Source: a virus. From it: a DNA stretch of 64,000 bases. Shown one piece after another: positions 1 through 64,000 of this stretch. Position 1 is the stretch's first letter. Each line of letters opens with the position of its first letter. The translations under genes and the position numbers were made by a program. The stretch is from IMG/VR virus record IMGVR_UViG_3300020419_000013, positions 3,103 to 67,102 of that record. One strand, given 5' to 3'. Under the pieces are notes generated by a model. It saw nothing but the letters and a program-made list of their open reading frames with translations, ran no database searches and was not told the origin of the DNA.

Positions 1-1
1 C

Positions 2-2452
2 CAGAATTTAAACAGTAGAAACTCACCACTATCAGATAGAATATACAATGGTGGTAAGTCTATCTGTCTATTGGATGACCTTCATGATGATTGTAATGGC
101 ACCATAAGAATATCTAATATCTCTAAGGCGAACTCAGGAATAACAGAAGATCATGATCACTACTACACTATCCGTAAGCAAACTGTATTAGAGCCACCTA
201 CTAAAGCTTCTAATAGGAATTACTATCTCATTCCTAATGATGTTAGCAATGTCATAGTAATGAATATTGATGTAGAGAAGGGTGGAGCAGGATATAGAAA
301 TACTTTGTTTGCATACATTGAGACAGATGGTGTGCCGAGGTGGGCTCAGCTCTTGGTCGTAGATGCAACCAATCAAACTGGTATGTCACAACATATCATA
401 CCTATCACTATCCTACAACAATACAAGGGAGGAAACTTAGGGTTTGCCCTTGTGTCTAATGGTGCTCAACTAAACTCATACAATGTAGGTGATACATTCA
501 CATCATTCTCTCAACTATCTGATGGATGGAGGATTACTGGTGTCTCATCAGCAGAATCTAACTACACACTCTTCTCTAATGATGCATTGAATCCTAGGGG
601 ATCTGTAAGTGATAGTAGAGACTACACAGTATGGAAGGGTGACCACTGGCAATGGTGGGAAGATCTGATTGGTGGTGACAGTGACTTTGATGACTGTAAA
701 TTCTGGCATGAAGTCATATGGGCAGGTGGATCAACAACATATGAAGGTATTCAATGTTATGTGTGGGAGAATGACTCACCTACACCTGTAACCAAACCTA
801 TGCTCACTAAGAATGACTGTGATCCTAGATTGTTTAAGACTTCATTCAAAGATGTCATGCTGATGAGAGCTGACTGTGGAGCTCTAGTTGTAGATGTGAC
901 AGGTAATAGTAGTGACGCAGGATGTGGTAAATGTCTTGGTGAATATCTATTCCAAGTTAATAGGACACAGAAATCTACGATACTACATACTGGAAAGTTT
1001 TCTCTTCGTAGTATGGGTGGTATCACTCAAGGTCTATCGGGTGACTGTATTGTATTTGTATTACAACTATCAGTTAATGGATCTGCTGTTTGGGAAGGCA
1101 AGTTTAAAGCAGGTGACTGGCCAGAGATAGGAAAGAAACTACACACAGAAGAATTCTTTAGTGTTGTCAAGGATGATGTAGTTAAATTTAAAGTTACTGA
1201 GATCAAGCGTGGTCCTACTGTTGGTAATGTTACACCACGCATAGCAATACTTGATGAGGAGTCTTATCTCTTCGAGAGCACCTTCTCTATGCGTCTACAA
1301 ACGCAAGACGGAGACGCTAGGTCTATTCCATACCCTTCGACTGTAAATCCAGAAGCTGAATCATCCAAAGGAGTTGGTGGAGCAATCACTGGGTTTGACA
1401 TGTGTTACATACACAACAACGAAGACAGACATAAGAATGCAGAGATTGAAGAAGCACAGAAGTGGTATAAAGTATGGGAGAATTCTGCTGCTGTTAATAC
1501 TGATGCCACTTACAACAACACTACAAACTATACCAAGTATCAGACATGGACTAACCGTAAAGGATCAGTCATTCGTGGATGGGATGGCACAGATAGGAAT
1601 TCATACATTGATACCTATGGTTTCCATACCGATGACAAGTCACAACACTTTAACTTATTGCTCACCAGAATGTTATTCAAAGATGGTAAGACAGGTCCTC
1701 AGTATATTGATGGAGTCAACGCACCTAACGATGTGAAGAGACACATACAAACAGAGACACACTACGCTAGACTACAGAAGTATGCCTCTGATTCTTTTGC
1801 ATGGTATGAATCTAAGATGAATGGGTTTGCAGAAGATGCTGACACACAGTGGATGGTTGACAACCTATACAATGGTATGCAACAGAATCCTGAGGTTAAT
1901 ACAAGACTTGAGCCAGGTTATTTCATACAGGACTACTGGTTGATACCAGAGGATGATGAAAACCAAGAAGACCATGGCATCGGTGCTAACACTGCTAAGA
2001 TCCGTGTTGGTATAACATTCTGGGCAAAGAATGAGGGTTATGGCACAGGTAGTAGACGAACAACTAACTTCTATGCTACAATAGAATTATTGGAAGTCCT
2101 TGATTATGGTGACGGTTACGGAGAAGGTCAGGAGTTTGTATTCTACTGGCCACCAAAGTATACTGATCGCATCACTGATTATTCTACTGCCAATTCTGTA
2201 TCACCTTACTCTCCGACGTTAGATCCACATAGATCAGTCTCTGGTAGTTACAATCCTGTAAGTAAAAACATACCTGCAGAAATTGCAATCAACTATGAGC
2301 CAGGTGGAAGAGGGTATAGAGATACTAAGAGACCTGTTTATGATGCATACTATCAAGAGTCACATAATAGGGAATCGATGTATTGGTTTATAGATAAGAA
2401 AGAATACAAGGATAGAGTGAAATTTAAAGTACGTATCAACGGAGTACAGTAA
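2..2452 (+). CDS. Large virion/tail-associated protein, DUF4114-like (5' truncated by the window edge)
   Basis: The frame is open from position 2. It has a WEDLIGGDSDFDD motif typical of DUF4114 and a DHDHYYT motif resembling HFYT repeats. Confidence 0.6.
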   Translation, partial: QNLNSRNSPLSDRIYNGGKSICLLDDLHDDCNGTIRISNISKANSGITEDHDHYYTIRKQTVLEPPTKASNRNYYLIPNDVSNVIVMNIDVEKGGAGYRNTLFAYIETDGVPRWAQLLVVDATNQTGMSQHIIPITILQQYKGGNLGFALVSNGAQLNSYNVGDTFTSFSQLSDGWRITGVSSAESNYTLFSNDALNPRGSVSDSRDYTVWKGDHWQWWEDLIGGDSDFDDCKFWHEVIWAGGSTTYEGIQCYVWENDSPTPVTKPMLTKNDCDPRLFKTSFKDVMLMRADCGALVVDVTGNSSDAGCGKCLGEYLFQVNRTQKSTILHTGKFSLRSMGGITQGLSGDCIVFVLQLSVNGSAVWEGKFKAGDWPEIGKKLHTEEFFSVVKDDVVKFKVTEIKRGPTVGNVTPRIAILDEESYLFESTFSMRLQTQDGDARSIPYPSTVNPEAESSKGVGGAITGFDMCYIHNNEDRHKNAEIEEAQKWYKVWENSAAVNTDATYNNTTNYTKYQTWTNRKGSVIRGWDGTDRNSYIDTYGFHTDDKSQHFNLLLTRMLFKDGKTGPQYIDGVNAPNDVKRHIQTETHYARLQKYASDSFAWYESKMNGFAEDADTQWMVDNLYNGMQQNPEVNTRLEPGYFIQDYWLIPEDDENQEDHGIGANTAKIRVGITFWAKNEGYGTGSRRTTNFYATIELLEVLDYGDGYGEGQEFVFYWPPKYTDRITDYSTANSVSPYSPTLDPHRSVSGSYNPVSKNIPAEIAINYEPGGRGYRDTKRPVYDAYYQESHNRESMYWFIDKKEYKDRVKFKVRINGVQ

Positions 2453-2817
2453 TGAGTGGTTTTGGTGAGCAGCCAGGTCGTAAGAGACATAAGGACTGGG
2501 CAGATAAATCTCTACAAAAAACAACAAGAGAATTAAAAGTCCTTCGTGATGTCATTGAAAAGTATAAGGATGATCCAAAGGGTCGTGCTAAGATGCTTAA
2601 GAAGATGAAAAGGTATTGGAATAGTCCTATTCAGACTATCAGAGATCTAGATATGAAACCTAGTGGAAAGAATATAGTTGACGAATTGAGAGAAATACCT
2701 TATGATAAGATGGTGGAAGACTATCGAGAAGAAGTCGGTATAGATTCTCCCCATGACCCTGTTGATACTACAACAGACGAGGCAGAAAACATTAGAAATT
2801 ATCTAGAAGGTAAATGA
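2452..2817 (+). CDS. Hypothetical protein
   Basis: 121-aa ORF translationally coupled on both sides (TAATG, ATGA). Confidence 0.75.
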   Translation: MSGFGEQPGRKRHKDWADKSLQKTTRELKVLRDVIEKYKDDPKGRAKMLKKMKRYWNSPIQTIRDLDMKPSGKNIVDELREIPYDKMVEDYREEVGIDSPHDPVDTTTDEAENIRNYLEGK

Positions 2818-3959
2818 AGGTAGCTGTGATCGGTAGAGGTAGTGGTGGATTGATTTCCATCATGAATCTATTGACGTACGACATCCAAGTCGATTGTTAT
2901 TATGATCCCGAAACTTCCCAACTCCCTGTCGGTGAGTCAACCACACCTCAATTTGCATCGCTGATTGAATGCACGTTAGGTTTAACCATTGATGATCTTA
3001 TATCTCTTGGTCTTGCTTCACGCAAGAAAGGGATTGAGTTTGTTGGATGGGGTAAGTCTAAGCATTTCTATCATAGATTTATCTATCAAGATGCAATACA
3101 TTTCTATACCAAAACTCTTAACCCATTTCTTCAAGAGAATCTTGAGAAATATAAAGGGGTAAAGTTTATTGGCAAACGTGTTACTGCATTGAATGCACTG
3201 CAGAATGAATACGATTTTGTTATTAACTGCTCGGGTGCTCTAAGCAATTATAGAAAAGAGATTGACATACCATGTGTTAATAGTGTATTATATTTTGACG
3301 ACCATAAAATACATGGTCATCCAGAGTATACATATCATCTGGCACATGAGTATGGGTGGAAGTTTAGTCTTCCTTTTCCTGAGAAGGGACTTTCTAGAAC
3401 GGGTTACCTCTACAACAGGAAGTATCAAACTCATCTCGACGCAGAGATCCTCTATTCACAAGGGGATCTTTATGAATGGGTGCCTTCATACGCACCCGAT
3501 ATGATTGTCAATAACAAGTTGGCACTGAATGGTAACGCTTTACTATTCTTCGAGCCTCTTCAAGCACTTTCACTTCTTCATTACGATATGGTCGCAAAAA
3601 GAATCTGCGACTATATTGTTAATGGCCAAACATTAGAGGAGAAATTGCTAGGTAATCTCTGGTATCGTAGAATGATCGAGGCATACATTGATGCTCTCGC
3701 TTTTCATTATCAGTATGGTAGTGAGCACAATTCTGGATACTGGGAAGAGGTCAGTAAAAAAAGTGTCACAAGGGTTGGACACAAATGGTGGAATGATGGT
3801 ATGCTTATACATCAGGTGCGATCTTCTTGGGAATCGGGTAGGAATACTCACCTAACAAGTCACCCTGATTACTACTACGCACCCGATCACACAGGCATCT
3901 TCGGCATCACTTGCATGTATCAATTACATCAGGGACTGTCAGGAGGTGCACACCGTTGA
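2814..3959 (+). CDS. Short, divergent tryptophan-halogenase-family flavoprotein
   Basis: GRGSGG FAD motif, VGESTTP, Lys in SRKKGIEF, GWKFSLP (variant of WxWxIP), FFEPLQA. Confidence 0.75.
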   Translation: MKVAVIGRGSGGLISIMNLLTYDIQVDCYYDPETSQLPVGESTTPQFASLIECTLGLTIDDLISLGLASRKKGIEFVGWGKSKHFYHRFIYQDAIHFYTKTLNPFLQENLEKYKGVKFIGKRVTALNALQNEYDFVINCSGALSNYRKEIDIPCVNSVLYFDDHKIHGHPEYTYHLAHEYGWKFSLPFPEKGLSRTGYLYNRKYQTHLDAEILYSQGDLYEWVPSYAPDMIVNNKLALNGNALLFFEPLQALSLLHYDMVAKRICDYIVNGQTLEEKLLGNLWYRRMIEAYIDALAFHYQYGSEHNSGYWEEVSKKSVTRVGHKWWNDGMLIHQVRSSWESGRNTHLTSHPDYYYAPDHTGIFGITCMYQLHQGLSGGAHR

Positions 3960-29816: not shown

Positions 29817-31157
29817 GTGGCAACAAAGCGAATATCACAATTAAGTGCAATAACGGATGCAGAGGTTACTGGCGAGTCGATTCTCCCTGTAGTTATCTCT
29901 GACCCATTGCAACCAAACCGCAAAGCCAAAGTAAACCAGTTGCATAGAGGTGTGAGTGCAGGAACTGCAGCCACGCCAGGTCTATGTTTCGATTTGGACA
30001 GGGACACAGGACTCTACCAAGCACAAGCAAATGAGATTGGTATAACTTTTGGGTCTGCGACAATCTATAACACTAGAGTAGCAAACACTGATGGATCTTC
30101 AACGGTCAACATCACTGCTATAGATACTGCTAGTGCAAACAGTAACGTACAAATCACTCCTCAAGGTAGTGGTTATTTTACTGTACAAGGTCTTACTCAG
30201 TTTAAAGACGTTGAGTTTTACTTAACAGGTGACCAAAACCCTGCGAAGAGAGCATTCTTCAATGCTGATACAATCTCTACGCAATCAGGTACAAAGAGAT
30301 TTGACTTACCTGATGTAGGTGCAAACACATCTACAACGATGGTTGCTAATGACACCTTCCAGACATTGACAAACAAGTCGGTTATCATTAAAGATAGCGA
30401 ATTGTCTATTACTGGATCAACATCAACTGATAAAATTGCAAAGTTTGAGTGTGACTCATGGCAGTCAGTAGGTACTCACTTCTATAAGTTACCTGATTTT
30501 GGTGCTACAGAGACACAATCTACTCTGATTGATGACATCACAGAGCAGAATATATTCAACAAGAACATGATTAACCCCACGTTCTCGAATACACCCTCTG
30601 GAGATCCTCAAAATCCTACAGCAAAGGTCATTTTTGATTCTTCTGGTCTAACCGCAGACCGTACTATTACATTTGATAACCTTAATGCTACACTTGTAGG
30701 TACAGACTCTACCCAAACACTAAGTAATAAAGTATATCAAGGTGCAATCTTTGCAGATACAACTGCAAGCGTCGGTATTAATAGGAAAGTAACGTTTGAT
30801 TTATCTAATATTGAGGATAATCAAAACTATTCCTATAGTTTCCCTAATAACGACCCTTCTGCTCCCCTAAATACAAGTGACTCTTCAGTTTTAGTAACAG
30901 AATTGAAGACTCAAACGTTGGTTAATAAGACATTTGAATCCGCTAAGATTAACAACCCTAACGATTTAAACGGTCTTGTTACTATTGACGTCTCTAATAT
31001 CACTGAAGCAGTATCGATTCAATTCCCTAATGCGGATGCGACTTTACTTTCAACGAATAACATCGCTGAGGTGGGTATTAGTTTTGGTGGTCCGATTTCG
31101 GCACCTGTCTTGGGAGGACAACTAAGACTACAATCACATTTCCAGTCAGGATGGTAA
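29817..31157 (+). CDS. Virion structural protein (tail-fibre module)
   Basis: Late promoters upstream; MATKRISQL; repeated QTLTNK/QTLSNK/QTLVNK. Confidence 0.8.
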   Translation: MATKRISQLSAITDAEVTGESILPVVISDPLQPNRKAKVNQLHRGVSAGTAATPGLCFDLDRDTGLYQAQANEIGITFGSATIYNTRVANTDGSSTVNITAIDTASANSNVQITPQGSGYFTVQGLTQFKDVEFYLTGDQNPAKRAFFNADTISTQSGTKRFDLPDVGANTSTTMVANDTFQTLTNKSVIIKDSELSITGSTSTDKIAKFECDSWQSVGTHFYKLPDFGATETQSTLIDDITEQNIFNKNMINPTFSNTPSGDPQNPTAKVIFDSSGLTADRTITFDNLNATLVGTDSTQTLSNKVYQGAIFADTTASVGINRKVTFDLSNIEDNQNYSYSFPNNDPSAPLNTSDSSVLVTELKTQTLVNKTFESAKINNPNDLNGLVTIDVSNITEAVSIQFPNADATLLSTNNIAEVGISFGGPISAPVLGGQLRLQSHFQSGW

Positions 31158-31164
31158 TTAAGAA

Positions 31165-33395: not shown

Positions 33396-36300
33396 ATGGC
33401 ACTAACTCGTCTTAAAAATATCATCACATCGAGGACTGGACGTATTATATACGTCAACCCCGATGATTTTGATGCGTCAGATAGTTTTGACAATAGAGGT
33501 AACTCAGCGTTACGTCCATTCAAGACGTTGCAACGTGCGTTTTTAGAAGTATCGAGATTTTCATATAGAGTTGGTTTAAGTAATGACGAATTTGACGCAT
33601 TCAGTATATACCTATATCCCTCAGAGTATGTTTTAGATAATAGACCAGGTTTAACAGATTTTAACCAGATCCAACCATTCAATGAGAATAGTAACTTTGA
33701 TTTAACGTCTGCATCCAATGAGCTTTACAAATTCAATTCAACTCGTGGTGGCATTATTGTACCCAGAGGTTGTTCCGTCGTGGGATCCGACCTCAGAAGA
33801 ACTAAGATTGTACCTAAATATGTGCCGTATCCCACAGTACAAGGATCCCTTGGTATAACTGCTGCTAACGAGCCTACTGCTACTGCAATCTTTAGATTAA
33901 CTGGTGCGACATATTTCTGGCAGATGTCCTTCTTTGATGGGGACAACAACGGTGTATTCTATAGAGACGATCTCTCACAGATAGCACCAAACTTCTCACA
34001 TCATAAACTAACATGTTTCGAGTATGCTAATACTGCTGATCTAAACTTATACTATCAAAAGATCTCAAAAGCATACGCAACGATTCCTGATTCCTCTGGT
34101 ATCATAGCTCAAGACCAATTACAGGCAAGAGTCGAGGAAAACAGAATTGTAGGTCCGATCTCTGATGAATTTGCTGTATCACAGATCATAAGAAATGGAC
34201 AAACAGCAACCGCATTTACCGTGGATGAGTTGGGTAACCCCAAGAACCACGGTTTCTCTGTTGGAGTAGCAGTTAATATATCTGGTGTAACAGGTCCTAC
34301 TGAGCAAGATCAGTTACTATACAATGGATCATTCTTTGTAACGTCAGCACAGGGTAACCAGTTTACCTATCAAATGTCTGCTGAGCCATCTGGTAACGCT
34401 ATTGGATCTAATATTCTTGTTAAGGTTGAGATTGACACAGTTGACTCAGCATCACCATATGTATTCAACTGCTCTCTAAGATCAGTATGGGGTATCAATG
34501 GTATGCATGCTGATGGAGCAGAAGCAACTGGTTTCAAATCCATGGTTGTTGCCCAGTTTACAGGTATATCACTACAGAAAGACGACAGAGCATTCGTATT
34601 ATATAACGCAACTACAGGTCAATATGAAGCACAAGCCGCAGGGTCTGGTGCACACATTAATGGTCTGGCAAAATATCGTAAGGGATGGCGTAACTGCCAT
34701 ATTAAAGCATCCAATGATGCATTTATACAGGTCGTTTCTGTGTTTGCTGTTGGATTTGGTGACCATTTCTTCTCTAGGAGTGGTGGTGACCTATCTATCA
34801 CTAATAGTAACAGTAACTTCGGAAATACCTCTCTCAGATCTACTGGATTTAAGTCAGCAAGTTTCACCAAAGATAAGGCGGGACAGATTACGCACGTTAT
34901 ACCACCTAAATCCTTAGATGATGTAGAGGAAATCTCAGTTAACTGGGTGACTATCGATATTAACAAGACCAGAGCAGCAGCAGATCCAACAAAACTATTT
35001 TTATATGGTTACTCAGTAGAAACTGGCAAACCACCAAGTAAAGTCCAAGGCTATACTGTTGGTGCCAGAAGAGATGATGTCAACACACCTGACAGAGTTT
35101 ATGTCTTGTTGGTAGCATCTGGTGCAAATGAGCCAACAACTCATTACGCAGAGATTGCACCTTCAGGTCCTACTGTAACAGGCACATCACCTGGTGATGA
35201 CGACTCTCCACTCAAGTGGGATGTTACACAAAGCAACTGGTATATTCAAGTAAATGGTAGTGCAAACACAATTTACACTACACTACAGTCTAATACAACA
35301 TATCAAAACTTAGGATTCACACCTACTACATTTGTAAGAAGAATCCCTGATGCTAGAAACCTTGTTGACAGAATCTATCGTTATCGTTACGTCCTTGATA
35401 AAGACGCATTCCCAGTGCCTAGGACACCGATTACTGGTTTCGTTATCGAGCCTAGATCATCAGAAACTAACTCTCCTGCATACTCGAGGACATATTACAT
35501 TTATGCAGTCGAGACTTATCAAGAATTTGTTAGAGGTGTCACCGATGGTATATACTATCTGACATTCCTTAATGCTTCAGTTAGCCCAACTACAACTAAC
35601 TTCAACGACTTCGAGTTCTCACAACAGACAGTCGATCTCTACCCTGCATTTGACAGAGATAACCCAGTTGCAGACCCCTCTGCATCTATCTCTATCGCAG
35701 ATAATGAAGTATTGGGATTAGTGAAGACCACTGATGGTGCATCACCTACACCTAATGAGAATAAACAGTTGTCTATTACAAAAGAAACAACTCAATATTA
35801 TCTACAGGAGTCGCAAAATAACTTAGGATACACTACAGCATCTAACGTGTTGAATGGTATCTCAGTTACTGCACGAGCAGGTGAGGCAGAGGATAGGAAG
35901 ATTCCTCTAAAACTAAATGCTGACAGTAGCGTCCAACCTGTATTAGTAGAGCTGAGACGATATTCAATCCTTAGAGCATCTGGACACACGTTTGAATACC
36001 TTGGTTTCGGACCAGGTAACTATTCAACTGCATTCCCATCTACACAGGTGGAAGTATTGTCACCTGCTCAGGTTAGACTATCACAGTCACTAAAAGAAGC
36101 AGCAGGTGTTGCATACTACTCAGGTGTTAACAGTGATGGTGAATTATTCGTTGGTAACCAGGTTATTAACCCAGTTACAGGTCAGATCACTAACGAAGAT
36201 ATTGCACAACTTAACGTGTTAGGTGAGGAAGGCACAACTATTGAGACATTCTCTGAGTTGGTCTTAACTGATAAACTAACTGTTATTGGTGGTGCATCTA

Positions 36301-41881: not shown

Positions 41882-41898
41882 TGCTATAATCTATAGTA
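41882..41898 (+). promoter_or_regulatory. Extended -10 promoter, probably giving a leaderless mRNA
   Basis: TGcTATAAT ending 7 nt before the halogenase ATG; no RBS. Confidence 0.55.
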
Positions 41899-43373
41899 TG
41901 AAGATTTACATTATTGGTGGTGGGTCATCTGGATGGATGACAGCAACCACAATGCTGACAAAATTTCCCGAAGCAAACATCACAGTCGTAGAGTCGCCTG
42001 ATACACCCCCTGTTGGTGTAGGTGAGTCTACGACTCAGTATTTTAGGATATGGGCAGAATATGTAGGACTCAAAGATGAAGAGTGGATGCCTGCATGTGA
42101 TGCCACATATAAGATTAGTGTAAGATTTAGTAACTTTAATAAGGTAGATGACACACCATGGCAATATCCATTTGGTTATCATATCCAAGATCTACCTCAA
42201 CCTGATGTTTATTTTTGGAATGCATATAAGAATAACTGGAGTAATGATAAATTTGCCCGAGAATATTTTGTATCAGCAGAAGCAGCAGAAAATAATTTAC
42301 TACCCATCAAGCATCCAAACTTTAATCTTAAAAAGAATACTGGATTTCATTTTGATGCAGTAAAGTTTGCACACTGGTTAAAAGACAACAAATGCCAGAA
42401 GGTAAATCATATTATTGGTAAGGTAGATGATTTTGAGAAGGATGGAGACGAAATAAAATATCTATGGATAGATGAGAAACAACATGAAGCAGATTTATAT
42501 TTTGATTGCACTGGATTTGCATCAGTACTTAATAAGTCTGAGTGGTTAGATTATAGTGAGTGGTTACCAAATGATACAGCATGGGTAACACGTCTAGACT
42601 ATAGGGAAGGACATAAGAAAGAGGATCTCAAATCATATACACAGTGCACAGCATTGAGTAGTGGATGGGTGTGGACAGTGCCCACATTTGCCAGAATTGG
42701 GACAGGATATGTATTCTCTAGTAAGCATCAAGATCATCAGAGTGCATTAACAGAGTTTTCAAAATTTCTTAAGTATGATACTGATGGATTTAGGAAAATA
42801 CATTTCAAGACAGGCAGAAAGAAAGAAGGATGGGTTGGTAATGTAGTGTCTATTGGTTTATCATATGGATTCCTAGAGCCATTGGAATCTAATGGTCTGT
42901 TATCAACACATGATAACTTGTTAAGATTCTGTAGGACGTGGAAACCGAACACCACTCAAATGATGAGAGATACATATAACAAGGCGATAGCATTTGGTTT
43001 CGATGGGTTTGCAAGTTTCGTTGCTCTTCATTATGCTCTTACTCAACGTAGGGATTCTTCTTATTGGAGATATGTCTCAAGTATTAGATATCCTGATAAG
43101 GGGATAAATGAAGCAGCAAGAGTCACAATGATGGAAGAGTCACATAATTTTTCCAGTAAACTAAACTTCAATCACAGCAGTGGTGCTTCACTGTTTTGTG
43201 TCATGGCAGGTCATGGATGGAATCCATTTAATGATGTCATTGAAAGTGAGATTAATTTTCATGGTGGAATACCTGATGACTCACATCTAAACAGTTGGAC
43301 ACATGAGTGGAATCGTGATAGACTGGGAGTTAATCCTTTAGATTATTATAATAGGACATTGTATGCAGTATAG
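41898..43373 (+). CDS. Tryptophan-halogenase-family flavin-dependent halogenase
   Basis: GGGSSG, GVGEST, DATYK (catalytic Lys position), WVWTVP, FLEPLESNG. Confidence 0.92.
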   Translation: MKIYIIGGGSSGWMTATTMLTKFPEANITVVESPDTPPVGVGESTTQYFRIWAEYVGLKDEEWMPACDATYKISVRFSNFNKVDDTPWQYPFGYHIQDLPQPDVYFWNAYKNNWSNDKFAREYFVSAEAAENNLLPIKHPNFNLKKNTGFHFDAVKFAHWLKDNKCQKVNHIIGKVDDFEKDGDEIKYLWIDEKQHEADLYFDCTGFASVLNKSEWLDYSEWLPNDTAWVTRLDYREGHKKEDLKSYTQCTALSSGWVWTVPTFARIGTGYVFSSKHQDHQSALTEFSKFLKYDTDGFRKIHFKTGRKKEGWVGNVVSIGLSYGFLEPLESNGLLSTHDNLLRFCRTWKPNTTQMMRDTYNKAIAFGFDGFASFVALHYALTQRRDSSYWRYVSSIRYPDKGINEAARVTMMEESHNFSSKLNFNHSSGASLFCVMAGHGWNPFNDVIESEINFHGGIPDDSHLNSWTHEWNRDRLGVNPLDYYNRTLYAV

Positions 43374-44967
43374 ATCATTTTGTATTGTAGGTGGTGGGTC
43401 ATCTGGTTGGATGGCAGCAGCAACAATGAAGAAGGCATTCCCAGAGTGTGAGGTCAGTCTCATACAACCTGAGGGTAGAAATATTATTGGTGTAGGAGAG
43501 TCTACTTTAGGACATATCAATAGGTTTTTTAGATTTCTTGGATTACATGACAAGGAGTGGATGCCATATTGTAATGCCACATATAAATCATCTATTGCAT
43601 TTAAGAATTTTAGGACAGGAGAGGGAGAGAGATTTCAATATCCATTCGGACGTATAGATCGCAACGATTATCGTAGTGATTATATGACATTCTTTGAGTT
43701 GCAAGTAAAGTATCCACACTTGTATCCACCCGAAGAGTTTGCACGTTTCTTTAATCCAAATACTATTCTGGCAGAAGAGAATAAACTAACGTCTGATTAT
43801 ATTTCCGAAGAAATGCGTAATTGGAATTTTGGTCAAGACACTGCATACCACATGGATAGTCACAAGTTTGGTGAGTATCTACAAAAGAAATTTCCTGAGG
43901 TAAAAGTATACACAGGTAATGTAATCAATGCCACTCGAGGTGAGACTGGTGACGTTATCACTATGAATACAGATAGTGGTGATAGAATCATGGCAGATCT
44001 TTATATTGATTGCACAGGTTTTAAATCCCTGATCCTAGAAAATATGATGGGATCGAAGTTTGTATCATTTAATGATGTATTGTTTAATGACACAGCGTGG
44101 TCAGCAAAGGTAGAGTATTCAGATCGTATCATACAGATGGATAACTATACAGATTGTGTAGCAATGTCTAATGGATGGATCTGGAATATACCACTATGGG
44201 ATAGAGTGGGGATGGGTTATGTATTCAGTCAGAAATATCTTGACCCTGACATAGCACAGGCAGAGTTTATGGGTTATATAGCACAACGCTATTCGCCCAA
44301 AATTGCCGACAATGCTGATTATCGCCTGATTAATATCAGACATGGTAAGAGAGAGAAAGCATGGGTCAATAATGTTGTAGGTATTGGACTAGCATATGGT
44401 TTCCTCGAGCCACTAGAGTCTACTGGACTCATGACTACACATGAGAATCTATTATATCTCGTGGATAGTCTCAAACGTCGTCCTATTACAACTAAGATTG
44501 ATATCGATAGTTATAACTACACTGTAGATCATGCGATTGAGTCTATGAAATACTTTATCGCTATGCATTATTTGTTATCTCAACGTCAAGATACAAAGTA
44601 TTGGGTAGATGCTACTCAAAACACATCTATGTTTAGTAATCATGACTTAACACAATACATGAATGATTGCCTAGGATGGCATTCTATGCTAGAATCACGA
44701 AGGGAATACTTCCAACTCTATGAAGGGTTAAGAAAGAATTTCTGGGCAGATAATAAATTTGATGGACTAATTTATATCGCAGCAGGTCAAGCATACAGAC
44801 CAATTAATGAGCATAGTGTGGATGAAGCACACTTTATTTTCCCACGTCGCAAAGGTGAGGTGGAAAGAGTGCATCAAGATTGGCAGCGTGACCGTAAAGC
44901 GATATATAATCAGGTGAGTCAACTACCAACACACTATGAGTATCTAAGGGATAACATCTATGGTTAA
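43363..44967 (+). CDS. Tryptophan-halogenase-family flavin-dependent halogenase
   Basis: GGGSSG, GVGEST, NATYK, WIWNIP, FLEPLESTG. Confidence 0.92.
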   Translation: MQYRSFCIVGGGSSGWMAAATMKKAFPECEVSLIQPEGRNIIGVGESTLGHINRFFRFLGLHDKEWMPYCNATYKSSIAFKNFRTGEGERFQYPFGRIDRNDYRSDYMTFFELQVKYPHLYPPEEFARFFNPNTILAEENKLTSDYISEEMRNWNFGQDTAYHMDSHKFGEYLQKKFPEVKVYTGNVINATRGETGDVITMNTDSGDRIMADLYIDCTGFKSLILENMMGSKFVSFNDVLFNDTAWSAKVEYSDRIIQMDNYTDCVAMSNGWIWNIPLWDRVGMGYVFSQKYLDPDIAQAEFMGYIAQRYSPKIADNADYRLINIRHGKREKAWVNNVVGIGLAYGFLEPLESTGLMTTHENLLYLVDSLKRRPITTKIDIDSYNYTVDHAIESMKYFIAMHYLLSQRQDTKYWVDATQNTSMFSNHDLTQYMNDCLGWHSMLESRREYFQLYEGLRKNFWADNKFDGLIYIAAGQAYRPINEHSVDEAHFIFPRRKGEVERVHQDWQRDRKAIYNQVSQLPTHYEYLRDNIYG

Positions 44968-50227: not shown

Positions 50228-51487
50228 TTGATTACACTTCGCCCACATCAGCAGAGATCACTCGATGCTATGGACAAAGCAAATAAAGGTCAGATCATCG
50301 TCCCTACTGGTGGTGGTAAGACATTCATAATGATACAGCACGCTAAGAAACTATTGAATACTACAGACATGTATCTCAATAGACCTAAGCATATTGTTGT
50401 AGTTGCACCTCGTATATTACTTGCTCAGCAGTTATGTGACGATTTCATGGAGCAGATCAATGGACGTGTATGTCATGCTCACTCAGGTGAGACACATTAC
50501 TACAGCACTACAAAGAGTGACCAGATCGCCAACTTCATCGAAGGATGTCGTTGTTTACATGAGAATGCTATTATATTCACTACATATCACTCATTACACA
50601 AAGTATTGGATGCTGATTTCGATATTGATGCTATCTATTTCGATGAAGCACACAACAGTGTAACAAGAGGATTCTTTCCTAAAGCGATGGATGCATCACA
50701 AACAGCAAAGAAGTGTTACTTTTTTACAGCAACACCTCGTAGTGCTCGTAAGCAAGAAGGAATATTTACTCGTGGTATGAATAATAAGCACGTTTATGGC
50801 GAAGTGTTAGAGTCGGTGCCTGCACCTGAGTTAATCAGCAACGGTAGTATTGTATCACCCACTATTGTGCCATTTAACAGTGACCGCTCTTTAACTAAAG
50901 AGAATATGCACGAGACACACACCGATACAGTTACCGAGATACTTGACACACTTGACGAAGATCACGCTAGTAAGGTATTGATCGCAGTGCCTAGCAGTAG
51001 ACAGTTAGGTAATATGATAGGTCATACTACATTACTATCTCAGTTGAGACTCAGAGGTTATGACTATTTGCATGTTACATCAAAGTATGGTGCATATGTC
51101 AATGACCAGAAAGTAAACAGAGAAGTATTCATGGACACCCTTGCGAAGTGGGGACGTGATGATAGCAAGAAGTTTGTTGTTATGCACTACAGTATTCTAT
51201 CTGAAGGTATTAACGTCCACGGTTTAACCCATTGCATTCTATTGAGAAATCTTAATATTGTTGCTATGGCACAAACAATAGGTAGAGTAATCAGGATGCA
51301 TAAGGACGATGCTAGAGGAATTGCCGAGGGACGTATTCCTGCAGGTGCATGTCAGTTTTACAAAAAACCAACTGGTTATGTAACAGTCCCTATTCATAAC
51401 AACTATGGTCAAGCAGTAGTCAAGAGATTACAAAGAGTTGTAGATGAAATCTTTATTCAAGGAGTAGCACCCACCGCACTAATTTAA
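50228..51487 (+). CDS. SF2 DEAH helicase (ResIII-like)
   Basis: PTGGGKT, DEAH, TATP, SEGINV, QTIGRVIR. TTG start at 50228 chosen because 50177 lies upstream of the -10 box. Confidence 0.9.
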   Translation: MITLRPHQQRSLDAMDKANKGQIIVPTGGGKTFIMIQHAKKLLNTTDMYLNRPKHIVVVAPRILLAQQLCDDFMEQINGRVCHAHSGETHYYSTTKSDQIANFIEGCRCLHENAIIFTTYHSLHKVLDADFDIDAIYFDEAHNSVTRGFFPKAMDASQTAKKCYFFTATPRSARKQEGIFTRGMNNKHVYGEVLESVPAPELISNGSIVSPTIVPFNSDRSLTKENMHETHTDTVTEILDTLDEDHASKVLIAVPSSRQLGNMIGHTTLLSQLRLRGYDYLHVTSKYGAYVNDQKVNREVFMDTLAKWGRDDSKKFVVMHYSILSEGINVHGLTHCILLRNLNIVAMAQTIGRVIRMHKDDARGIAEGRIPAGACQFYKKPTGYVTVPIHNNYGQAVVKRLQRVVDEIFIQGVAPTALI

Positions 51488-51681: not shown

Positions 51682-52290
51682 ATGCAAACATCTAATCAAG
51701 ACCTATCATCAGCACTATCTAAGATCATTCCAGTTGCTATTAAACTCACTGAGCAACGTGTAGCAAAGATGCTAGAGATCGGTAGTGGTGGTAAAAAACC
51801 AGACCTAGATTCATTCTTTGGTGCTGACAATACAGTTGACAAGACTAAGTTTCTAGCAAACATCTTTAACCCTGCACTAGAGGACTCAGCAAAACAGTTA
51901 GGTGTTGACTACATCACCGAGGAAACAGTTGGTTACGATGCTATTCTATTAGATGAAGAGATCGAAAACAAAATGTCACTAGGTAGTAGCACATCATCAT
52001 TCGCTACTGGTAACAATCATAGTAAGACTAAGGTTGACAAGATATTTTGCATCAAGTTTACACAGAATGAGAATTCTTTCCCAAGTGTATTTGCATGTAT
52101 TGTTGACTTATCTCTTAAACAGAATGAAGCAACTGGATGGACAGATTCAGTTACAAAGACTGGTAAAAACAACAATGGATTCTCTACTCTTAGAATTCAT
52201 AACGAAGACAGAATGTGTGTAACACCTATCTTTGGTAACGTAAGACGCACTCAAAAGTTTATCCACACAGTATATGAAGATATCAAGTAA
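51682..52290 (+). CDS. Putative PD-(D/E)xK (restriction-like) endonuclease
   Basis: GYDAILLDEEIENKMS = D-x8-E-x-K; overlaps the downstream MTase by 17 nt. Confidence 0.45.
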   Translation: MQTSNQDLSSALSKIIPVAIKLTEQRVAKMLEIGSGGKKPDLDSFFGADNTVDKTKFLANIFNPALEDSAKQLGVDYITEETVGYDAILLDEEIENKMSLGSSTSSFATGNNHSKTKVDKIFCIKFTQNENSFPSVFACIVDLSLKQNEATGWTDSVTKTGKNNNGFSTLRIHNEDRMCVTPIFGNVRRTQKFIHTVYEDIK

Positions 52291-53134
52291 TAACACATAC
52301 CTAATGAGTTGTATAGATGGTATGCAACTCATGGATGAGCAGTCAGTTGACCTAGTAGTCACTTCACCACCATACGATGATCTCAGGACATACAACGATA
52401 GCAGTAAGTGGGACTTTAATGTCTTTAAAGAAGTTGCTAAGGGATTGACCAGAGTATTAAAAGATGGTGGTGTTATCATGTGGAATGTTAATGACGCTAC
52501 AATTAAGGGATCGGAGACTGGATCGAGTTTTAGACAGTGTTTGCATTTCGTAGATGAATGTGGTTTAAGATTACATGACACAATGATATATGAGAAAACA
52601 GGCACCGCTTTCGCTAGTGGTGTTAAGTCAGTAAGATATACTCAGGTGTTTGAGTATTGTTTCATACTATCCAAGGGTAGACCCAAGAGTATTAACCTTA
52701 TTCAAGATAAGAAAAACAAGTGGGCAGGGATAACATCATGGGGCAATGCTACATCACGCAATAAGGATGGGACAACGAATGACCCTAATCGAAAAAGCAA
52801 TGCAATCAAGGAGTGGGGAGTAAGGACAAACATATGGAGGATTAAAAACAGTGGTGGTTTTGGACAATCGTCTAAAGCATCATATAAACATCCTGCTACA
52901 ATGCCAGAAGAGTTAGCACGAGGTCACATTAAAACGTGGTCAAGTGTTAACGATGTAGTGCTAGACCCATTCATGGGTGCAGGCACTACCGCTCAGGTTG
53001 CAATGGAAGAGAATAGACAATACATAGGTTTTGAGATTGATAAAACATATCACAAAATGTGTGTTGACAGAATGCTACCATTCAAAGATAACGTATTAAC
53101 TAGACTATTACTTGAGGATTTAGACCATTGTTAA
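52274..53134 (+). CDS. Beta-class N4-cytosine/N6-adenine DNA methyltransferase
   Basis: TSPPY motif IV, HPATMP, DPFMGAGTT motif I. Confidence 0.93.
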   Translation: MKISSNNTYLMSCIDGMQLMDEQSVDLVVTSPPYDDLRTYNDSSKWDFNVFKEVAKGLTRVLKDGGVIMWNVNDATIKGSETGSSFRQCLHFVDECGLRLHDTMIYEKTGTAFASGVKSVRYTQVFEYCFILSKGRPKSINLIQDKKNKWAGITSWGNATSRNKDGTTNDPNRKSNAIKEWGVRTNIWRIKNSGGFGQSSKASYKHPATMPEELARGHIKTWSSVNDVVLDPFMGAGTTAQVAMEENRQYIGFEIDKTYHKMCVDRMLPFKDNVLTRLLLEDLDHC

Positions 53135-56287: not shown

Positions 56288-56554
56288 ATGAGAAACATTA
56301 CAATCACTTTGAAAATTGAATGCGAAAAGGATGCTGAGATTAATCCATTGCATGTTGCTGAAGAAGTCCAAGCATATTTGGATGCACATTCAACTTATTT
56401 TGACACAGTGACCGAAGACTACCGCACCCCACTTATAAAAGGTTATCTCATGGAGTGGGATAAGTTTACACCTGTTTGTTTTAAAGATAATGATGAAGAC
56501 AGCGAAGACACTGAAGAATATAATGAAGTAGAGGATGCAGCAAGTTACACATGA
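56288..56554 (+). CDS. Acidic hypothetical protein
   Basis: Preceded by TTGATT-N17 and TGcTATAAT at about 56231-56258. Confidence 0.65.
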   Translation: MRNITITLKIECEKDAEINPLHVAEEVQAYLDAHSTYFDTVTEDYRTPLIKGYLMEWDKFTPVCFKDNDEDSEDTEEYNEVEDAASYT

Positions 56555-57468
56555 TAAAAAGAAATAGCATAGTATATGGTGATGTTAGACAAACATTGCC
56601 CGATTTATGGATGCATAAGGCACAAATGTGTGTAACTAGTCCACCCTATTATGGACTAAGGGATTATGGTGGGGAAGAGAATCAAGTAGGACAAGAAGAA
56701 ACACCAGAGGATTATATTAATAATATGGTCAAGATCTTTCGCTTAGTTAGAGATAATTTACAGGATGATGGCACATTATGGTTGAATATTGGGGATAGTT
56801 ATTATAACTATAGACCAGGAAAAGGTCAGTCATATCCTAAGCAATCAGTATCTAAAACTAAACAAGATTTGCCTGATAAATGTAATAAACGAGGTAATAA
56901 GTTAGAAGGATTAAAAGAAAAGGATTTAATCGGTATTCCGTGGATGTTGGCGTTTGCATTACGTCAGGATGGATGGTATCTAAGGCAAGATATTATTTGG
57001 CATAAACCTAACCCGATGCCCGAATCCGTAAGAGATAGATGCACTAAGGCACATGAGTATATTTTTCTATTCTCTAAGAATAAGAAATATTATTATGATA
57101 ATGAAGCAATTAAAGAGGACGCTAAGGACTGGGGGACGAGAGACCGCACAAAAGGAAAGTATCATAATAAGGGGACAGGATTACAACCGCATACTGGACT
57201 ATCAAAAAGTTATCCTAAAAAGAATAAAAGATCTGTATGGTCAGTAACCAATAAACCATATAAGGGAAGTCATTTTGCAGTATTTCCACCTGACTTAATA
57301 CAACCGTGCATACTGGCAGGGAGTAAAAAAGGGGATTTAGTGCTAGACCCATTTATGGGTAGTGGCACCACGGCGATGGTAAGTAAGCAATTAGGACGTG
57401 ATTATATTGGATGTGAGTTGCATGAAGATTATAATGAATTAATAGAGAAAAGGATAAATGGGGTGTGA
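56551..57468 (+). CDS. Beta-class N4-C/N6-A DNA methyltransferase (orphan)
   Basis: TSPPYYGLRDY, IIWHKPNPMPESV, HFAVFP, DPFMGSGTT. Confidence 0.94.
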   Translation: MIKRNSIVYGDVRQTLPDLWMHKAQMCVTSPPYYGLRDYGGEENQVGQEETPEDYINNMVKIFRLVRDNLQDDGTLWLNIGDSYYNYRPGKGQSYPKQSVSKTKQDLPDKCNKRGNKLEGLKEKDLIGIPWMLAFALRQDGWYLRQDIIWHKPNPMPESVRDRCTKAHEYIFLFSKNKKYYYDNEAIKEDAKDWGTRDRTKGKYHNKGTGLQPHTGLSKSYPKKNKRSVWSVTNKPYKGSHFAVFPPDLIQPCILAGSKKGDLVLDPFMGSGTTAMVSKQLGRDYIGCELHEDYNELIEKRINGV

Positions 57469-60560: not shown

Positions 60561-60570
60561 ATTTTATAAG

Positions 60571-61340: not shown

Positions 61341-61377
61341 CAATTATCCGAGGACACACACAGACCTCTCAGGGGGG

Positions 61378-61406
61378 TTGACTTTTGCCCTCTAATGCCT
61401 TATTAT
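61378..61406 (+). promoter_or_regulatory. Sigma70 promoter
   Basis: TTGACT-N17-TATTAT. Confidence 0.65.
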
Positions 61407-61436
61407 GACTAGGTAGTAAGGTATTCGCCCCTATTC

Positions 61437-61598: not shown

Positions 61599-61786
61599 GC
61601 ACACTTCCAAAACAGTTAGAGGTCTATCTAGATCTATATGATAGTGGCAACCTACCACCCGATGAAATCGGAGAAATGTGTCAGTTTCTCCTGGACACTG
61701 GACTGAATGAAGACCTAACCCAGTATACTCAGTTATGTGAGTATATGGTATTAGAGGGAGTATGCTATGAGGTCAGCATGCAGTAA
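61595..61786 (+). CDS. Hypothetical protein
   Basis: QFLLDTGL...EGVCYEV. Confidence 0.65.
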   Translation: MSTLPKQLEVYLDLYDSGNLPPDEIGEMCQFLLDTGLNEDLTQYTQLCEYMVLEGVCYEVSMQ

Positions 61787-61941
61787 TACAGTTATACTAG
61801 TCTGTATGGACAGTTAAATTGGGTGATATTGTTGTATATTAAAATCGGGTAAGTCCCTAACCTACAAAAGTATCCCAAAGCGAGAGTTTTATTCTATTCA
61901 TATTTAAAAAATTTCTCAATTATTTTTTCACCCCACAACCC

Positions 61942-62112
61942 ATGAGTAAAGTATTTCAGTTACCTACAGTGCCCCCAGTAGACATTAAGATATGGGAGAA
62001 GTCTAGGAAATACTTCTGGCAATTTGATTATCCTGACTGTAGGAAGTATGGTCCTTTTAGATCTCAGGCAGCAGCACTAGATGATGCAAACAAACACAGT
62101 AGACAACACTAA
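61942..62112 (+). CDS. 56-aa hypothetical protein
   Basis: MSKVFQLP...YGPFRSQAAALDDA. Confidence 0.6.
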   Translation: MSKVFQLPTVPPVDIKIWEKSRKYFWQFDYPDCRKYGPFRSQAAALDDANKHSRQH

Positions 62113-62217
62113 ATGAAAACAGAAACACTATTACGAGTATACTTACAGGTAAGGCAGAAGGCATTACCAAAGATTAAACCAGTTAGGAAACACTACAACA
62201 TTCACACATATGGGTAG
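62113..62217 (+). CDS. 34-aa basic protein
   Basis: MKTETLLRVYLQVRQK...RKHYNIHTYG. Confidence 0.55.
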   Translation: MKTETLLRVYLQVRQKALPKIKPVRKHYNIHTYG

Positions 62218-62689
62218 GAGAAGCAAACTCCAAGAGATAGAGAAGGAATACTCACACTTACTCGGTGAGGAGTGGAGAAGTATTCATTCGTGGAGTTGCT
62301 ACCATTGTGTAAGAAAATACTATCGGTTATATTGTAATAGAGAGTTGAGAGACTTTACCAAGTTAGATCAGATATATGCTTTTACTGACAATGCTATTGA
62401 TACTGAAGAAGGGGAATATGTAATGAAGTCTGAGATGTGGGAGAAGGCATCTCTTGACAGTCTGGATAAAGATGATATAATACTCTTTAGACTGTGGTAT
62501 ACGCCTCTAGAAGGGGGTTATACTAAGAGACATGGGCAAGCACCTAACCATGGAGGTGTTTATCTGGGTGATGGGTTTATGCTACATCATCCTTATCGGG
62601 GGCAGAGTCAAATCACTGACCTTCTTGCACCTGGTAATAGCTTCTATATGGAGACATGCGTAGGTGCAATTCGTGGTAAGTCTACATAA
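62210..62689 (+). CDS. NlpC/P60-family cysteine peptidase
   Basis: SCYHCVRKYY (Cys) and NHGGVYLGDGFMLHH (His) motifs. Confidence 0.8.
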   Translation: MGRRSKLQEIEKEYSHLLGEEWRSIHSWSCYHCVRKYYRLYCNRELRDFTKLDQIYAFTDNAIDTEEGEYVMKSEMWEKASLDSLDKDDIILFRLWYTPLEGGYTKRHGQAPNHGGVYLGDGFMLHHPYRGQSQITDLLAPGNSFYMETCVGAIRGKST

Positions 62690-62711
62690 GGTGTAACACT
62701 GATAACAATTA

Positions 62712-62876
62712 ATGAGTAAAAGATTTACTCTCACTATAGAAGAAGACGAATATTGCGATCTTTTCATTACTCTACCACTTGAGTTATTGGAGGAAATGGG
62801 ATGGAAAGCAGGCACCACTCTTGAATATACTGAGGAGACTGATGGGTCTCTTAAACTAGTAGCCATTGACGACTAA
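62712..62876 (+). CDS. AbrB/MazE-like small protein (54 aa, not in the ORF track)
   Basis: LFITLPLELLEEMGWKAGTTLEY. Confidence 0.7.
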   Translation: MSKRFTLTIEEDEYCDLFITLPLELLEEMGWKAGTTLEYTEETDGSLKLVAIDD

Positions 62877-62893
62877 AAAAATCGCGACTGATC

Positions 62894-63196
62894 ATGCCAA
62901 TTAAATCAACTAGTCCTATAAGTTATGGGGATCCTGCCCAACCGACAACTCCTTTACCTACTCAGGGTATGGATGATATTGAAAAAATCGCTTTCTGCCT
63001 AGAAAAGGTGGGTCAAGGATTAGAGAATCTTGCCAAACGGACTGCTATATGTGAGGACGCTATAAGGAAACAACCCCCGCCTGGTGCTGATATGATTCAA
63101 TATAAACCAGAAGGGTATGAGAAGCATTTGAATATCAAAGAGATTCTAGACGATCTGTATTCTCGACTAAATAAATTGGAAGATCGTTTGAGCTAA
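62894..63196 (+). CDS. Conserved cyanophage hypothetical protein
   Basis: YKPEG...EILDDLYSRLNKLE. Confidence 0.7.
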   Translation: MPIKSTSPISYGDPAQPTTPLPTQGMDDIEKIAFCLEKVGQGLENLAKRTAICEDAIRKQPPPGADMIQYKPEGYEKHLNIKEILDDLYSRLNKLEDRLS

Positions 63197-63197
63197 A

Positions 63198-64000
63198 TTG
63201 CCTTGCTATATCCTATCAAGTAAACGATCGTTTCCTAACCCTGTAGAGGGAGAGGATTACATAAAACCTTTCTACGATGAGGAAAACTCAGAGAGTTATA
63301 CTATAGAGTATCTCGATGAGGGACCTGGGACTATGCCTTTAGGTAAGGACATAGTGCATTACATTGGTGAGGAGCAGAAAACATGTATTGCCAACTGTGA
63401 TGATGGTAGACAACCTGTTTATCGCTTCTATAGAGGTAGTAAAGACGATCACAAATACGCAAAAACCCCAGAGTTGACAAAAGAGCATGCTATTGGGGAC
63501 GATGAGCACTGGCAAAAAGTATTAAGAGGATATAATCCAGAGCCTAGACAGGGGCAGATACCTGTTTTCTACCTGATGAATACTCAGGTTACTAATTCGG
63601 TGCCTGTTTATATTCATTATAGAGGGCAGAGAGACGATGATACACAGTTAACCCTCTCACAGACACCACCAGCTAGCAATAATGGTAAACCATACTACCT
63701 TGTAGGGATACTAGGATATATTTTTACGAGTGAAAGTGATGCAAATGCCTATGCAGGGACAGGAGAGACCGCTGTGCCACTGTATGAATACTTCTATGAC
63801 CCAGAAGATCACTTCTATACTATCAATCCTGCACAAGAAGTTAACCTAAGTGGTGGTCCTATTGCTCCTGCAGACCCAAGAGCAGGTCAATATGTCTATC
63901 AGGGCATCTTTGGATATGTTTTTCAAACAGAAAACCCAGATGCATCAGATAATAAGTATGAAGATATCGGTAAGATAGGTCCTACTGGTCAGTGTGTAGA
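63198..64000 (+). CDS. Large virion protein with HFYT (DUF5648-like) repeats, 3' truncated
   Basis: TTG start, frame open to the window end; PVYRFY, PLYEYF..DHFYT, YQGIFGYVF. Confidence 0.65.
   Translation, partial: MPCYILSSKRSFPNPVEGEDYIKPFYDEENSESYTIEYLDEGPGTMPLGKDIVHYIGEEQKTCIANCDDGRQPVYRFYRGSKDDHKYAKTPELTKEHAIGDDEHWQKVLRGYNPEPRQGQIPVFYLMNTQVTNSVPVYIHYRGQRDDDTQLTLSQTPPASNNGKPYYLVGILGYIFTSESDANAYAGTGETAVPLYEYFYDPEDHFYTINPAQEVNLSGGPIAPADPRAGQYVYQGIFGYVFQTENPDASDNKYEDIGKIGPTGQCV

Follow-up and report, generated by a model that had tools for sequence, protein, structure and literature searches.

Why should the genome of a cyanophage be nearly free of one short, non-palindromic word? The question is raised by a 64,000-nucleotide stretch of viral DNA, analysed here in full and called the window (bases 3103–67102 of the 67,102-bp IMG/VR record IMGVR_UViG_3300020419_000013, estimated completeness 36%), in which the tetramer GAAC and its complement GTTC are strongly under-represented. 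A reading made earlier from the sequence alone had noticed this depletion and had proposed that the phage escapes either a defence linked to Dnd phosphorothioation or a GAAC-specific nuclease, with a more speculative connection to three halogenases. We find that the depletion is real and that it accompanies two adjacent phage genes, a nuclease-like open reading frame (ORF) and a DNA methyltransferase gene. In the explanation that we consider probable, this pair is a phage-borne Type II restriction-modification (R-M) module whose own sites, GAAC/GTTC and GTAC, have been purged from the phage genome. Nucleotide similarity places the window in a T4-like cyanomyovirus close to P-TIM40 (Kyanoviridae, Libanvirus; isolation host Prochlorococcus NATL2A): a 12-kb piece matches P-TIM40 with 86.6% identity over its full length, and the next-best matches, P-RSM6 and S-WAM1, reach 74–77% over one third of the piece.

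The depletion is large under every null model that we applied. The window holds 21 GAAC and 10 GTTC sites (31 in all), against 454 expected from mononucleotide composition, 455 from a first-order Markov model, and 406 from a maximal-order Markov model. Dinucleotide-preserving shuffles (n = 100) gave a mean of 453.6 with a standard deviation (sd) of 21.6, and all 100 had at least 31 sites. Nor does codon-aware correction raise the ratio to ∼1. Permuting synonymous codons within the 91 ORFs (300 shuffles), which retains every protein and the codon usage of each gene, gave a mean of 342.9 sites (sd 14.7, minimum 302) in coding DNA that contains 26, an observed-to-expected (O/E) ratio of 0.08 (z −21.6). 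These ORFs come from a simple caller of our own; they cover 89.7% of the window, and 84 lie on the + strand. Six of the 31 residual sites fall outside them, so the non-coding DNA is depleted too. Successive 8-kb bins along the window hold 6, 5, 3, 7, 4, 4, 1, and 1 sites. The hand counts of the sequence-only reading were correct (GAAC at 130 and 2058 and no GTTC in 1–2460; neither word in 31141–33360). Of the residual sites that it quoted, 34244 is right but 13194 and 16254 are each off by one (13193 and 16253), and its estimate of ∼38% GC is replaced by a computed 39.4%.

Codon choice in the window depends on the neighbouring codon. Asn is encoded by AAC at 10 of 178 positions that follow NNG and at 435 of 935 elsewhere, and Phe by TTC at 5 of 147 positions after NNG and at 337 of 722 elsewhere. 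Before Cnn, Glu is encoded by GAA at 3 of 85 positions (600 of 1036 elsewhere) and Val by GTT at 1 of 136 (366 of 1068 elsewhere). This pattern, which bears out the earlier claim that codon choice avoids the word, is exactly what word avoidance needs, and selection at synonymous sites maintains the depletion. The loss is equal across all codon phases and on both strands: in the codon shuffle the sense strand carries 17 GAAC against 173 expected and 9 GTTC against 170. Since the word and its complement are lost alike, the target is double-stranded DNA, and an mRNA target was rejected. A longer true site was also rejected: the residual sites share no flank, and the word is depleted next to every 5′ and 3′ neighbour, so the 4-bp core is the unit. 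Two further candidates fell away. A Type III-like escape through strand orientation does not agree with the GAAC:GTTC split of 21:10, which is near the 268:187 predicted from composition (the split in P-TIM40 is 66:38), and tRNA T-loops are not the location of the residual GTTC sites, because the window contains no tRNA genes.

Across phages the depletion goes with the gene pair. A tblastn search of 50,697 phage records found the 202-amino acid (aa) nuclease-like ORF in 17, and the closest homologs of the window methyltransferase lie adjacent to it in the same 17 of 17; identity is 75–89% for the methyltransferase and 40–80% for the nuclease. The pair-bearing phages include P-TIM40, Syn9, Syn10, S-MS29, S-H35, S-RIM4, S-MbCM6, and S-MbCM25. 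All carriers that were measured are depleted (seven of seven when the window and the isolates are taken together, and six of six uncultured contigs), with GAAC O/E of 0.06–0.18 and GTAC O/E of 0.02–0.35. The whole P-TIM40 genome holds 104 sites against 1,428 expected (GAAC O/E 0.07). Pieces of 22–41 kb from Syn9, S-MbCM6, S-H35, S-RIM4, and S-MS29 give 0.14–0.18 for GAAC, 0.20–0.35 for GTAC, and 1.23–1.35 for GATC, and three uncultured close relatives give GAAC O/E of 0.07–0.11. The comparison with related cyanophages that the earlier reading had called for came out against a general property of the group: six T4-like isolates without the pair (P-RSM6, S-WAM1, P-SSM7, P-SSM4, S-TIM4, and S-SZBM1) have GAAC O/E of 1.09–1.28. 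The methyltransferase of the pair is absent from the whole records of P-RSM6, S-WAM1, P-SSM4, and S-TIM4.

A wider sample, anchored on the conserved helicase gene beside the pair, gave the same association. An alignment of this helicase from eight phages was used to retrieve 80 IMG/VR loci, each with flanks of up to 10 kb. Both genes are present in six loci (one of them the S-H35 record itself), all at GAAC O/E of 0.06–0.10, and 72 loci without the pair in the fetched DNA lie at 0.76–1.45; many of these 72 are short, and absence of the pair covers the DNA fetched, not each genome. Two loci are depleted (0.25 and 0.33) with no pair seen, and we return to them below. We then scanned every one of the 136 tetramer classes for differences between 12 carriers and 59 non-carriers of at least 8 kb, excluding the two pair-less depleted loci, two duplicates, and loci below 8 kb. 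The top rank goes to GAAC/GTTC (Mann-Whitney p 5.8e-8), for which the highest carrier value, 0.18, lies below the lowest non-carrier value, 0.76. GTAC comes next (p 3.7e-7), and the remaining words overlap these or compensate for them. GAAC, GTTC, and GTAC together make up GTWC/GWAC, which falls within the symmetric GWWC. No fewer than five changes of carrier state are required on a quickly built maximum-likelihood tree of the helicase (92 rows), and five of five independent contrasts between carriers and non-carriers agree.

The first gene of the pair is predicted to encode a PD-(D/E)XK Type II restriction endonuclease. Its product has no Pfam or NCBIfam match and belongs with phrog_11812 (E 7e-88), a family of unknown function. 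None of its 99 homologs, mostly from marine metagenome contigs, is functionally named, and 98 of them have no Pfam domain. In an alignment of 35 of the 99, residues G84, D86, E95, and K97 are invariant, which gives the D...ExK pattern of PD-(D/E)XK enzymes, with a variable hairpin separating its two halves; TGNNHSK-K and NNNGF blocks are likewise invariant. The AlphaFold2 model (predicted local distance difference test score (pLDDT) 88.6, predicted template modelling score 0.85) was compared with 48,161 representative chains, and the ten best matches are all Type II restriction endonucleases. NaeI leads (Z 9.5, root-mean-square deviation 3.8 over 155 residues), with further matches to BglI (7.5), SfiI (7.3), 3ndh (7.1), DpnI (6.8), SwaI (6.8), and EcoRV (5.0). 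A Foldseek search of the PDB likewise places NaeI first (E 4e-3, probability 0.97), then DpnI, 3ndh, EcoRV, NhoI, and BglI, in a list made up almost wholly of restriction endonucleases. In our judgement the uniformity of these lists counts for more than the top Z in suggesting a restriction-endonuclease fold. The predicted structure combines this fold, at moderate Z, with the catalytic motif of a Type II endonuclease, and DNA cutting would be its expected activity. Modelling also lends support to a putative homodimer with a symmetric interface through the N-terminal helices: the score is 0.71 against 0.00 for the best control, at least 93% of contacts recur between runs, and the partner pLDDT is at least 84. 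By rough counts on our own alignment, that mark is reached among solved structures by 20 of 30 same-chain pairs and by 1 of 23 single chains, and likeness to solved dimers could contribute to the score.

The second gene begins before the first has ended. The overlap with the nuclease ORF amounts to 17 nt, counting the stop codon, and the annotated overlap is 8–20 nt in P-TIM40, Syn9, S-MbCM6, and S-MS29. The two genes are co-oriented, adjacent, and inherited as a unit, and the second carries an S-adenosylmethionine-dependent DNA methyltransferase domain (PF01555, 142 bits against a cut-off of 26.7), as in an R-M system. An SPPY motif near the N-terminus and FMGAGTT near the C-terminus mark it as beta-class; its NCBIfam matches are partial and below cut-offs. 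The best solved relatives by sequence are the cytosine-N4 enzymes 8s9m/8s9n (E 9e-18) and M.PvuII (5e-12), with adenine enzymes close behind, although the strongest aligned stretch covers the C-terminal region only. GAAC and GTTC both end in C, so N4-methylcytosine (m4C) is possible on either strand.

The sites that remain in the window are young. Only 7 of 27 aligned residual sites are kept in P-TIM40, compared with 43–50% for seven control words of the same composition; besides the two close neighbours in Table 1, the conserved sites are at 17994, 25428, 27711, 41689, and 48619. The residual sites are being removed, and selection is ongoing. The twelve words one substitution away from GAAC stand at 0.94–1.35-fold relative to other cyanophages; eleven of them rise and CAAC does not. 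In P-TIM40 the residual sites are unevenly spread. Twelve gaps are 32 bp or less, against 1.8 expected, and five of these are inverted GAAC-N0-5-GTTC pairs (at 90222, 121721, 127000, 154918, and 168627). The tight pairs lie in gp18/19/23, the nrdB-talC spacer, and the hli/psbA region, and CGTTCATCC is repeated in the nrdB-talC spacer. We set aside the idea that such pairs are functional motifs and take them as patchy heterogeneity, itself unproven.

Table 1. Positions in the window of the gene pair, its neighbours, and the depletion signal.
Feature	Position	Strand	Basis and remarks
Helicase	50270..51487	+	ResIII/DEAD/Helicase_C domains; conserved neighbour of the gene pair, anchor for sampling relatives, outside the module
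Predicted PD-(D/E)XK Type II restriction endonuclease (202-aa ORF)	51682..52290	+	Corresponds to P-TIM40 gp059, Syn9 gp61, phrog_11812
Predicted cognate beta-class DNA methyltransferase (286 aa)	52274..53134	+	PF01555 N6_N4_Mtase, E 2.8e-41; corresponds to P-TIM40 gp060, Syn9 gp62
Second N6/N4 methyltransferase	56551..57468	+	PF01555, E 9e-60; carries SPPY
Depletion of GAAC/GTTC (31 sites, O/E 0.07) and GTAC (O/E 0.26)	1..64000		Word counts
Residual sites conserved in P-TIM40 (GTTC 33772, GAAC 33799)	33772..33802		Alignment

These observations suggest the following mechanism. A homodimeric PD-(D/E)XK endonuclease, translationally coupled to its methyltransferase, would cut at GTWC/GWAC, a word predicted from the composition of the genome itself and readable by a homodimer as a subset of GWWC. 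A fast-replicating phage genome with such a nuclease would be at risk at each unmethylated site, and selection would have erased ∼93% of the sites by synonymous substitutions and whatever other changes could be tolerated, with the methylase presumably covering the rest. The selective agent would then be the phage's own enzyme. Its use may be the shredding of host DNA, in which GAAC O/E is ∼1, or the exclusion of rival phages rich in sites. The earlier reading is borne out in part: a GAAC-reading nuclease, one of the agents that it named, is the most likely in our assessment, the best fit being the phage's own, and the Dnd link is not supported.

The main rival is a host enzyme of the same specificity, a non-Dnd restriction enzyme reading GAAC/GTTC (and GTAC) that drives the avoidance, the phage pair being a captured system of like specificity whose methylase adds protection. 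Depletion of this kind usually arises because phages avoid the restriction sites of their hosts, the same genomes avoid CCGG, GGCC, AGCT, and other palindromes without a matching phage gene, and methylase and avoidance could both answer one host enzyme. We nevertheless think this unlikely. None of the isolates or sampled contigs without the pair is depleted (0/6 and 0/72), and several share isolation hosts with carriers: NATL2A is a host of P-TIM40, P-RSM6, and P-SSM4, and WH8102 of P-TIM40, S-H35, and S-TIM4, yet P-RSM6, P-SSM4, and S-TIM4 show no avoidance (O/E 1.09–1.28). The accessible text of PMC6708340 describes P-TIM40 as a generalist to which Synechococcus WH8102 is sensitive, as it is to S-TIM4, and describes known active defences as uncommon in these hosts. 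A profile of the nuclease family, which finds P-TIM40 at E 3e-98, had no match in 401 genomes sampled from the host family, to which Prochlorococcus MIT 1012 belongs, and twelve DNA samples of 2–20 kb from that family have GAAC O/E of 0.86–1.26. Protection alone, moreover, needs no nuclease, yet the catalytic residues are invariant among the aligned homologs. Escape from Dnd, or avoidance of phosphorothioation at GAAC/GTTC, has the word itself in its favour: Dnd in E. coli B7A and Salmonella Cerro 87 has this consensus, one of several known Dnd words; to our knowledge, no classical enzyme has a bare 4-bp GAAC site. We judge it very improbable all the same. DndC (TIGR03183) was found in none of the 401 host-family genomes, in none of four named Prochlorococcus and Synechococcus genomes, and not in the P-TIM40 record (0/5 named records). 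The search itself works: in a sample drawn from the whole cyanobacterial phylum, DndC exceeds its curated cut-off in 111 of 401 genomes. The phylum genomes listed with full-length DndC matches are almost all of 3–8.5 Mb. No dnd-like domain occurs among the 91 window ORFs, and the literature returned for Prochlorococcus and phosphorothioate, judged by titles and opening lines of abstracts, contains no study of Dnd in Prochlorococcus. The same phages are also poor in GTAC, a word outside the Dnd consensus, and the depletion follows the phage gene pair, not the hosts. The suggested link to halogenases finds no support in the parts of the genomes that were viewed: a tryptophan halogenase is annotated in both S-WAM1 and S-SZBM1, neither of which is depleted, and 41-kb pieces of the depleted S-MbCM6 and S-H35 show no annotated halogenase. 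The window has three ORFs of the tryptophan-halogenase family by Pfam (2814–3959, 41898–43373, and 43363–44967), the first of which matches the N-terminal part of the profile only.

Two explanations would do without an active nuclease in the pair or without selection. In one, the methylase is the sole cause: methylated sites are costly, for example where hosts have methylation-dependent nucleases, and the neighbouring ORF has another role. The methylase is indeed the better conserved of the two genes, and the fold matches of its neighbour include DpnI and NhoI, whose solved structures contain methylated target DNA. This is improbable to us, as losing the methylase would be far cheaper than rewriting ∼1,300 sites, the genes always occur together (17/17 records and 6/6 contigs), and a phage that encoded a methylation-dependent nuclease next to the matching methylase would destroy itself. 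The other, to which we attach the least probability of all, is a mutational bias that removes the word unaided, deamination of a modified base being one example. In its favour, GAAT/ATTC shows a mild rise (1.22-fold), and 7 of 20 aligned non-conserved residual sites have the C-to-T (or G-to-A) variant GAAT/ATTC in P-TIM40. The eleven neighbouring words that rise do so by similar small amounts, however, none of them dominant, and since all twelve shift only mildly, no single mutational route explains the loss. Equal loss in all codon phases and on both strands also speaks against it, as does the turnover of residual sites, which is faster than that of control words, and the normal site density in one highly expressed capsid gene (see below) indicates a balance of selective forces.

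Several points weigh against a phage-borne R-M module as the cause. The GTWC/GWAC specificity is read entirely from k-mer footprints, and most carriers are enriched in GATC (1.14–1.37), although an enzyme that reads GW|WC symmetrically would be expected to recognise that word as well. The fold matches are moderate: Foldseek gave no PDB match at E 0.001 or better, and best Z values of 7–8 are typical of models without a match. The product of the methylase may be either m4C or N6-methyladenine. The avoidance is more extreme than any we know of in bacteria that carry restriction systems. The sign test on the helicase tree has a floor of p 0.0625 with five pairs, and a single-gene tree is a weak guide to mosaic phage history. 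The two pair-less depleted loci, L187 (59.8-kb record, 33% complete, O/E 0.08–0.25) and L143 (89.7 kb, 50% complete, O/E 0.23–0.33), have neither gene in their available length. The first record breaks off 1.8 kb and the second 0.1 kb upstream of the helicase, in the region that holds the pair in relatives (4–6 kb upstream in close relatives of L187); because the contigs end where the pair would lie, we do not count them as contrary. Finally, sites remain, 104 of them in P-TIM40, and protection by methylation must be assumed. The P-TIM40 major capsid gene gp23 (126639–127985; L135:16639–17985) has 9 sites where ∼10 are expected, compared with 0–1 each in the polymerase, terminase, portal, and a 4.4-kb structural gene. 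This gene strongly prefers AAC and TTC codons (AAC 24, AAT 5), which fits a conflict between avoidance and translational selection; recent import was rejected, as its best non-self match is P-RSM6 at 83% identity, with no sign of recent transfer. Since sites persist and gp23 has a normal density, the cost per site would be modest, and methylation would have to protect the remainder.

Other words are also under-represented. Besides GAAC/GTTC, which is the sole non-palindromic word among the severely depleted tetramers, CCGG (0), GCGC (0), CGCG, GGCC, AGCT, AGCC/GGCT, and GTAC are low in the window. CCGG is also missing from all cyanomyophage pieces that we examined, and GGCC, AGCT, and AGCC/GGCT (together RGCY) are low in every piece (O/E 0.03–0.36); we saw no phage gene matching this general avoidance in the present analysis. 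GCGC and CGCG are rare or absent in the Prochlorococcus-phage pieces and S-TIM4 and near 1 in S-WAM1, S-SZBM1, Syn9, and S-H35, and the window lacks the hexamers CAATTG (28–54 expected) and CACGTG (7–15 expected). GTAC is absent from the non-carriers L157, L166, and L188. Among carriers, GATC is depleted only in L151, where it is nearly gone (record G406: 2 of 133 and 0 of 111 expected); it is also low in the L143 record (G402: O/E 0.19–0.54) and absent from the non-carrier L167 (0 of 34 expected). GATC depletion may be a separate matter. We dropped the idea that a Dam-like enzyme shields GATC: the widespread second methylase also has SPPY, and the fetched pieces are mostly without it.

A comparable association may exist for a different word. 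P-SSM4 (L005:40590–42235) and L214 carry another annotated nuclease, PSSM4_046, together with a methylase at the same hot spot near the helicase, and nucleases of this type occur in our set only in these two loci. They also have the two lowest GTAAC/GTTAC (GTWAC) O/E values among 75 sequences of at least 8 kb (0.20 and 0.33; median 1.25), and CCAGC is low in both. P-SSM4 and L214 are close relatives, and the GTWAC pattern therefore counts as one event, a hint of a second case of the same rule.

The remaining gene content of the window is that of a cyanomyovirus. By Pfam, the 91 ORFs include T4-like structural and replication genes, many 2-oxoglutarate-Fe(II) oxygenases, and two N6/N4 DNA methyltransferases. 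The second of these has homologs in the non-depleted P-RSM6, P-SSM4, and S-TIM4 and is probably unrelated to the GAAC signal. At 62712–62876 lies a 54-aa ORF with a domain resembling the MazE antitoxin (E 2.7e-6), for which we identified no partner toxin.

The closest known parallel is found in the chloroviruses, which encode Type II R-M systems, among them those of PBCV-1 and NY-2A with GATC, CATG, and GTAC enzymes. There, too, a lytic virus of a phototroph combines a frequent-cutting endonuclease with a cognate methylase, probably for breakdown of host DNA and self-protection by methylation. The present case differs in being a T4-like bacteriophage with an unnamed nuclease family, a predicted degenerate 4-mer that includes a non-palindromic pair, and a ∼14-fold purge. 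The putative nuclease resembles Type IIP endonucleases such as NaeI and EcoRV in its predicted core fold, D...ExK motif, small size, and predicted homodimer, but it shares only 5–10% identity with its structural matches, has no Pfam or NCBIfam membership, and its activity and site are predicted. With Dnd systems the signal shares the 4-bp word and its presence on both strands, whereas no DndC was found in the sampled host-family genomes, GTAC is co-depleted, and the signal follows an R-M-like phage pair. Genomes reportedly avoid the recognition sites of restriction systems that they carry or meet (Gelfand and Koonin 1997; Rocha et al. 2001; Rusinov et al.). The window resembles such cases in that a short word is under-represented through selection against cleavage, and departs from them in its asymmetric word, its extreme depletion, and the fact that the phage itself carries the system. 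Our literature search, which left subscription journals and supplements outside its range, found nothing on GAAC or restriction-site avoidance in cyanophages or on the gene pair, and the accessible part of a 2025 cyanophage paper treats phage methylases solely as counter-defence. Virus-encoded restriction systems and self-avoidance by carrier genomes are known kinds of phenomena; what is new here is the setting, a nuclease family without a name, the word predicted, and how thoroughly that word has been purged.

A bolder proposal, which we put forward tentatively, is that Syn9 gp61, P-TIM40 gp059, and the window ORF form an unrecognised endonuclease family that serves some of the T4-like cyanophages as a frequent-cutting weapon against host and rival cyanophage DNA. 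It would have a new degenerate 4-bp specificity, GTWC/GWAC or perhaps GWWC; safety would come chiefly from erasing the word, with methylation as a back-up, and a private k-mer depletion would reveal the specificity of a phage's own nuclease. The GTWAC pattern of P-SSM4, which goes with another nuclease, is a hint that such a principle could hold more widely.

Few host-virus pairs on Earth are as abundant as the marine picocyanobacteria with their T4-like phages, and the conflicts between the two inside the cell are still poorly known. The analysis corrects an unsupported link between phosphorothioation and halogenases. If the R-M reading is true, about one in ten sampled cyanomyoviruses would carry an unannotated restriction system (17 phage records; 6 of 80 contigs), among them Syn9 and P-TIM40, both used in published infection experiments. 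It would also supply a rule for reading specificity, in which a word erased only by the phages that share a given nuclease points to the site of that nuclease, and it would bear on host DNA degradation and on competition between phages during co-infection.

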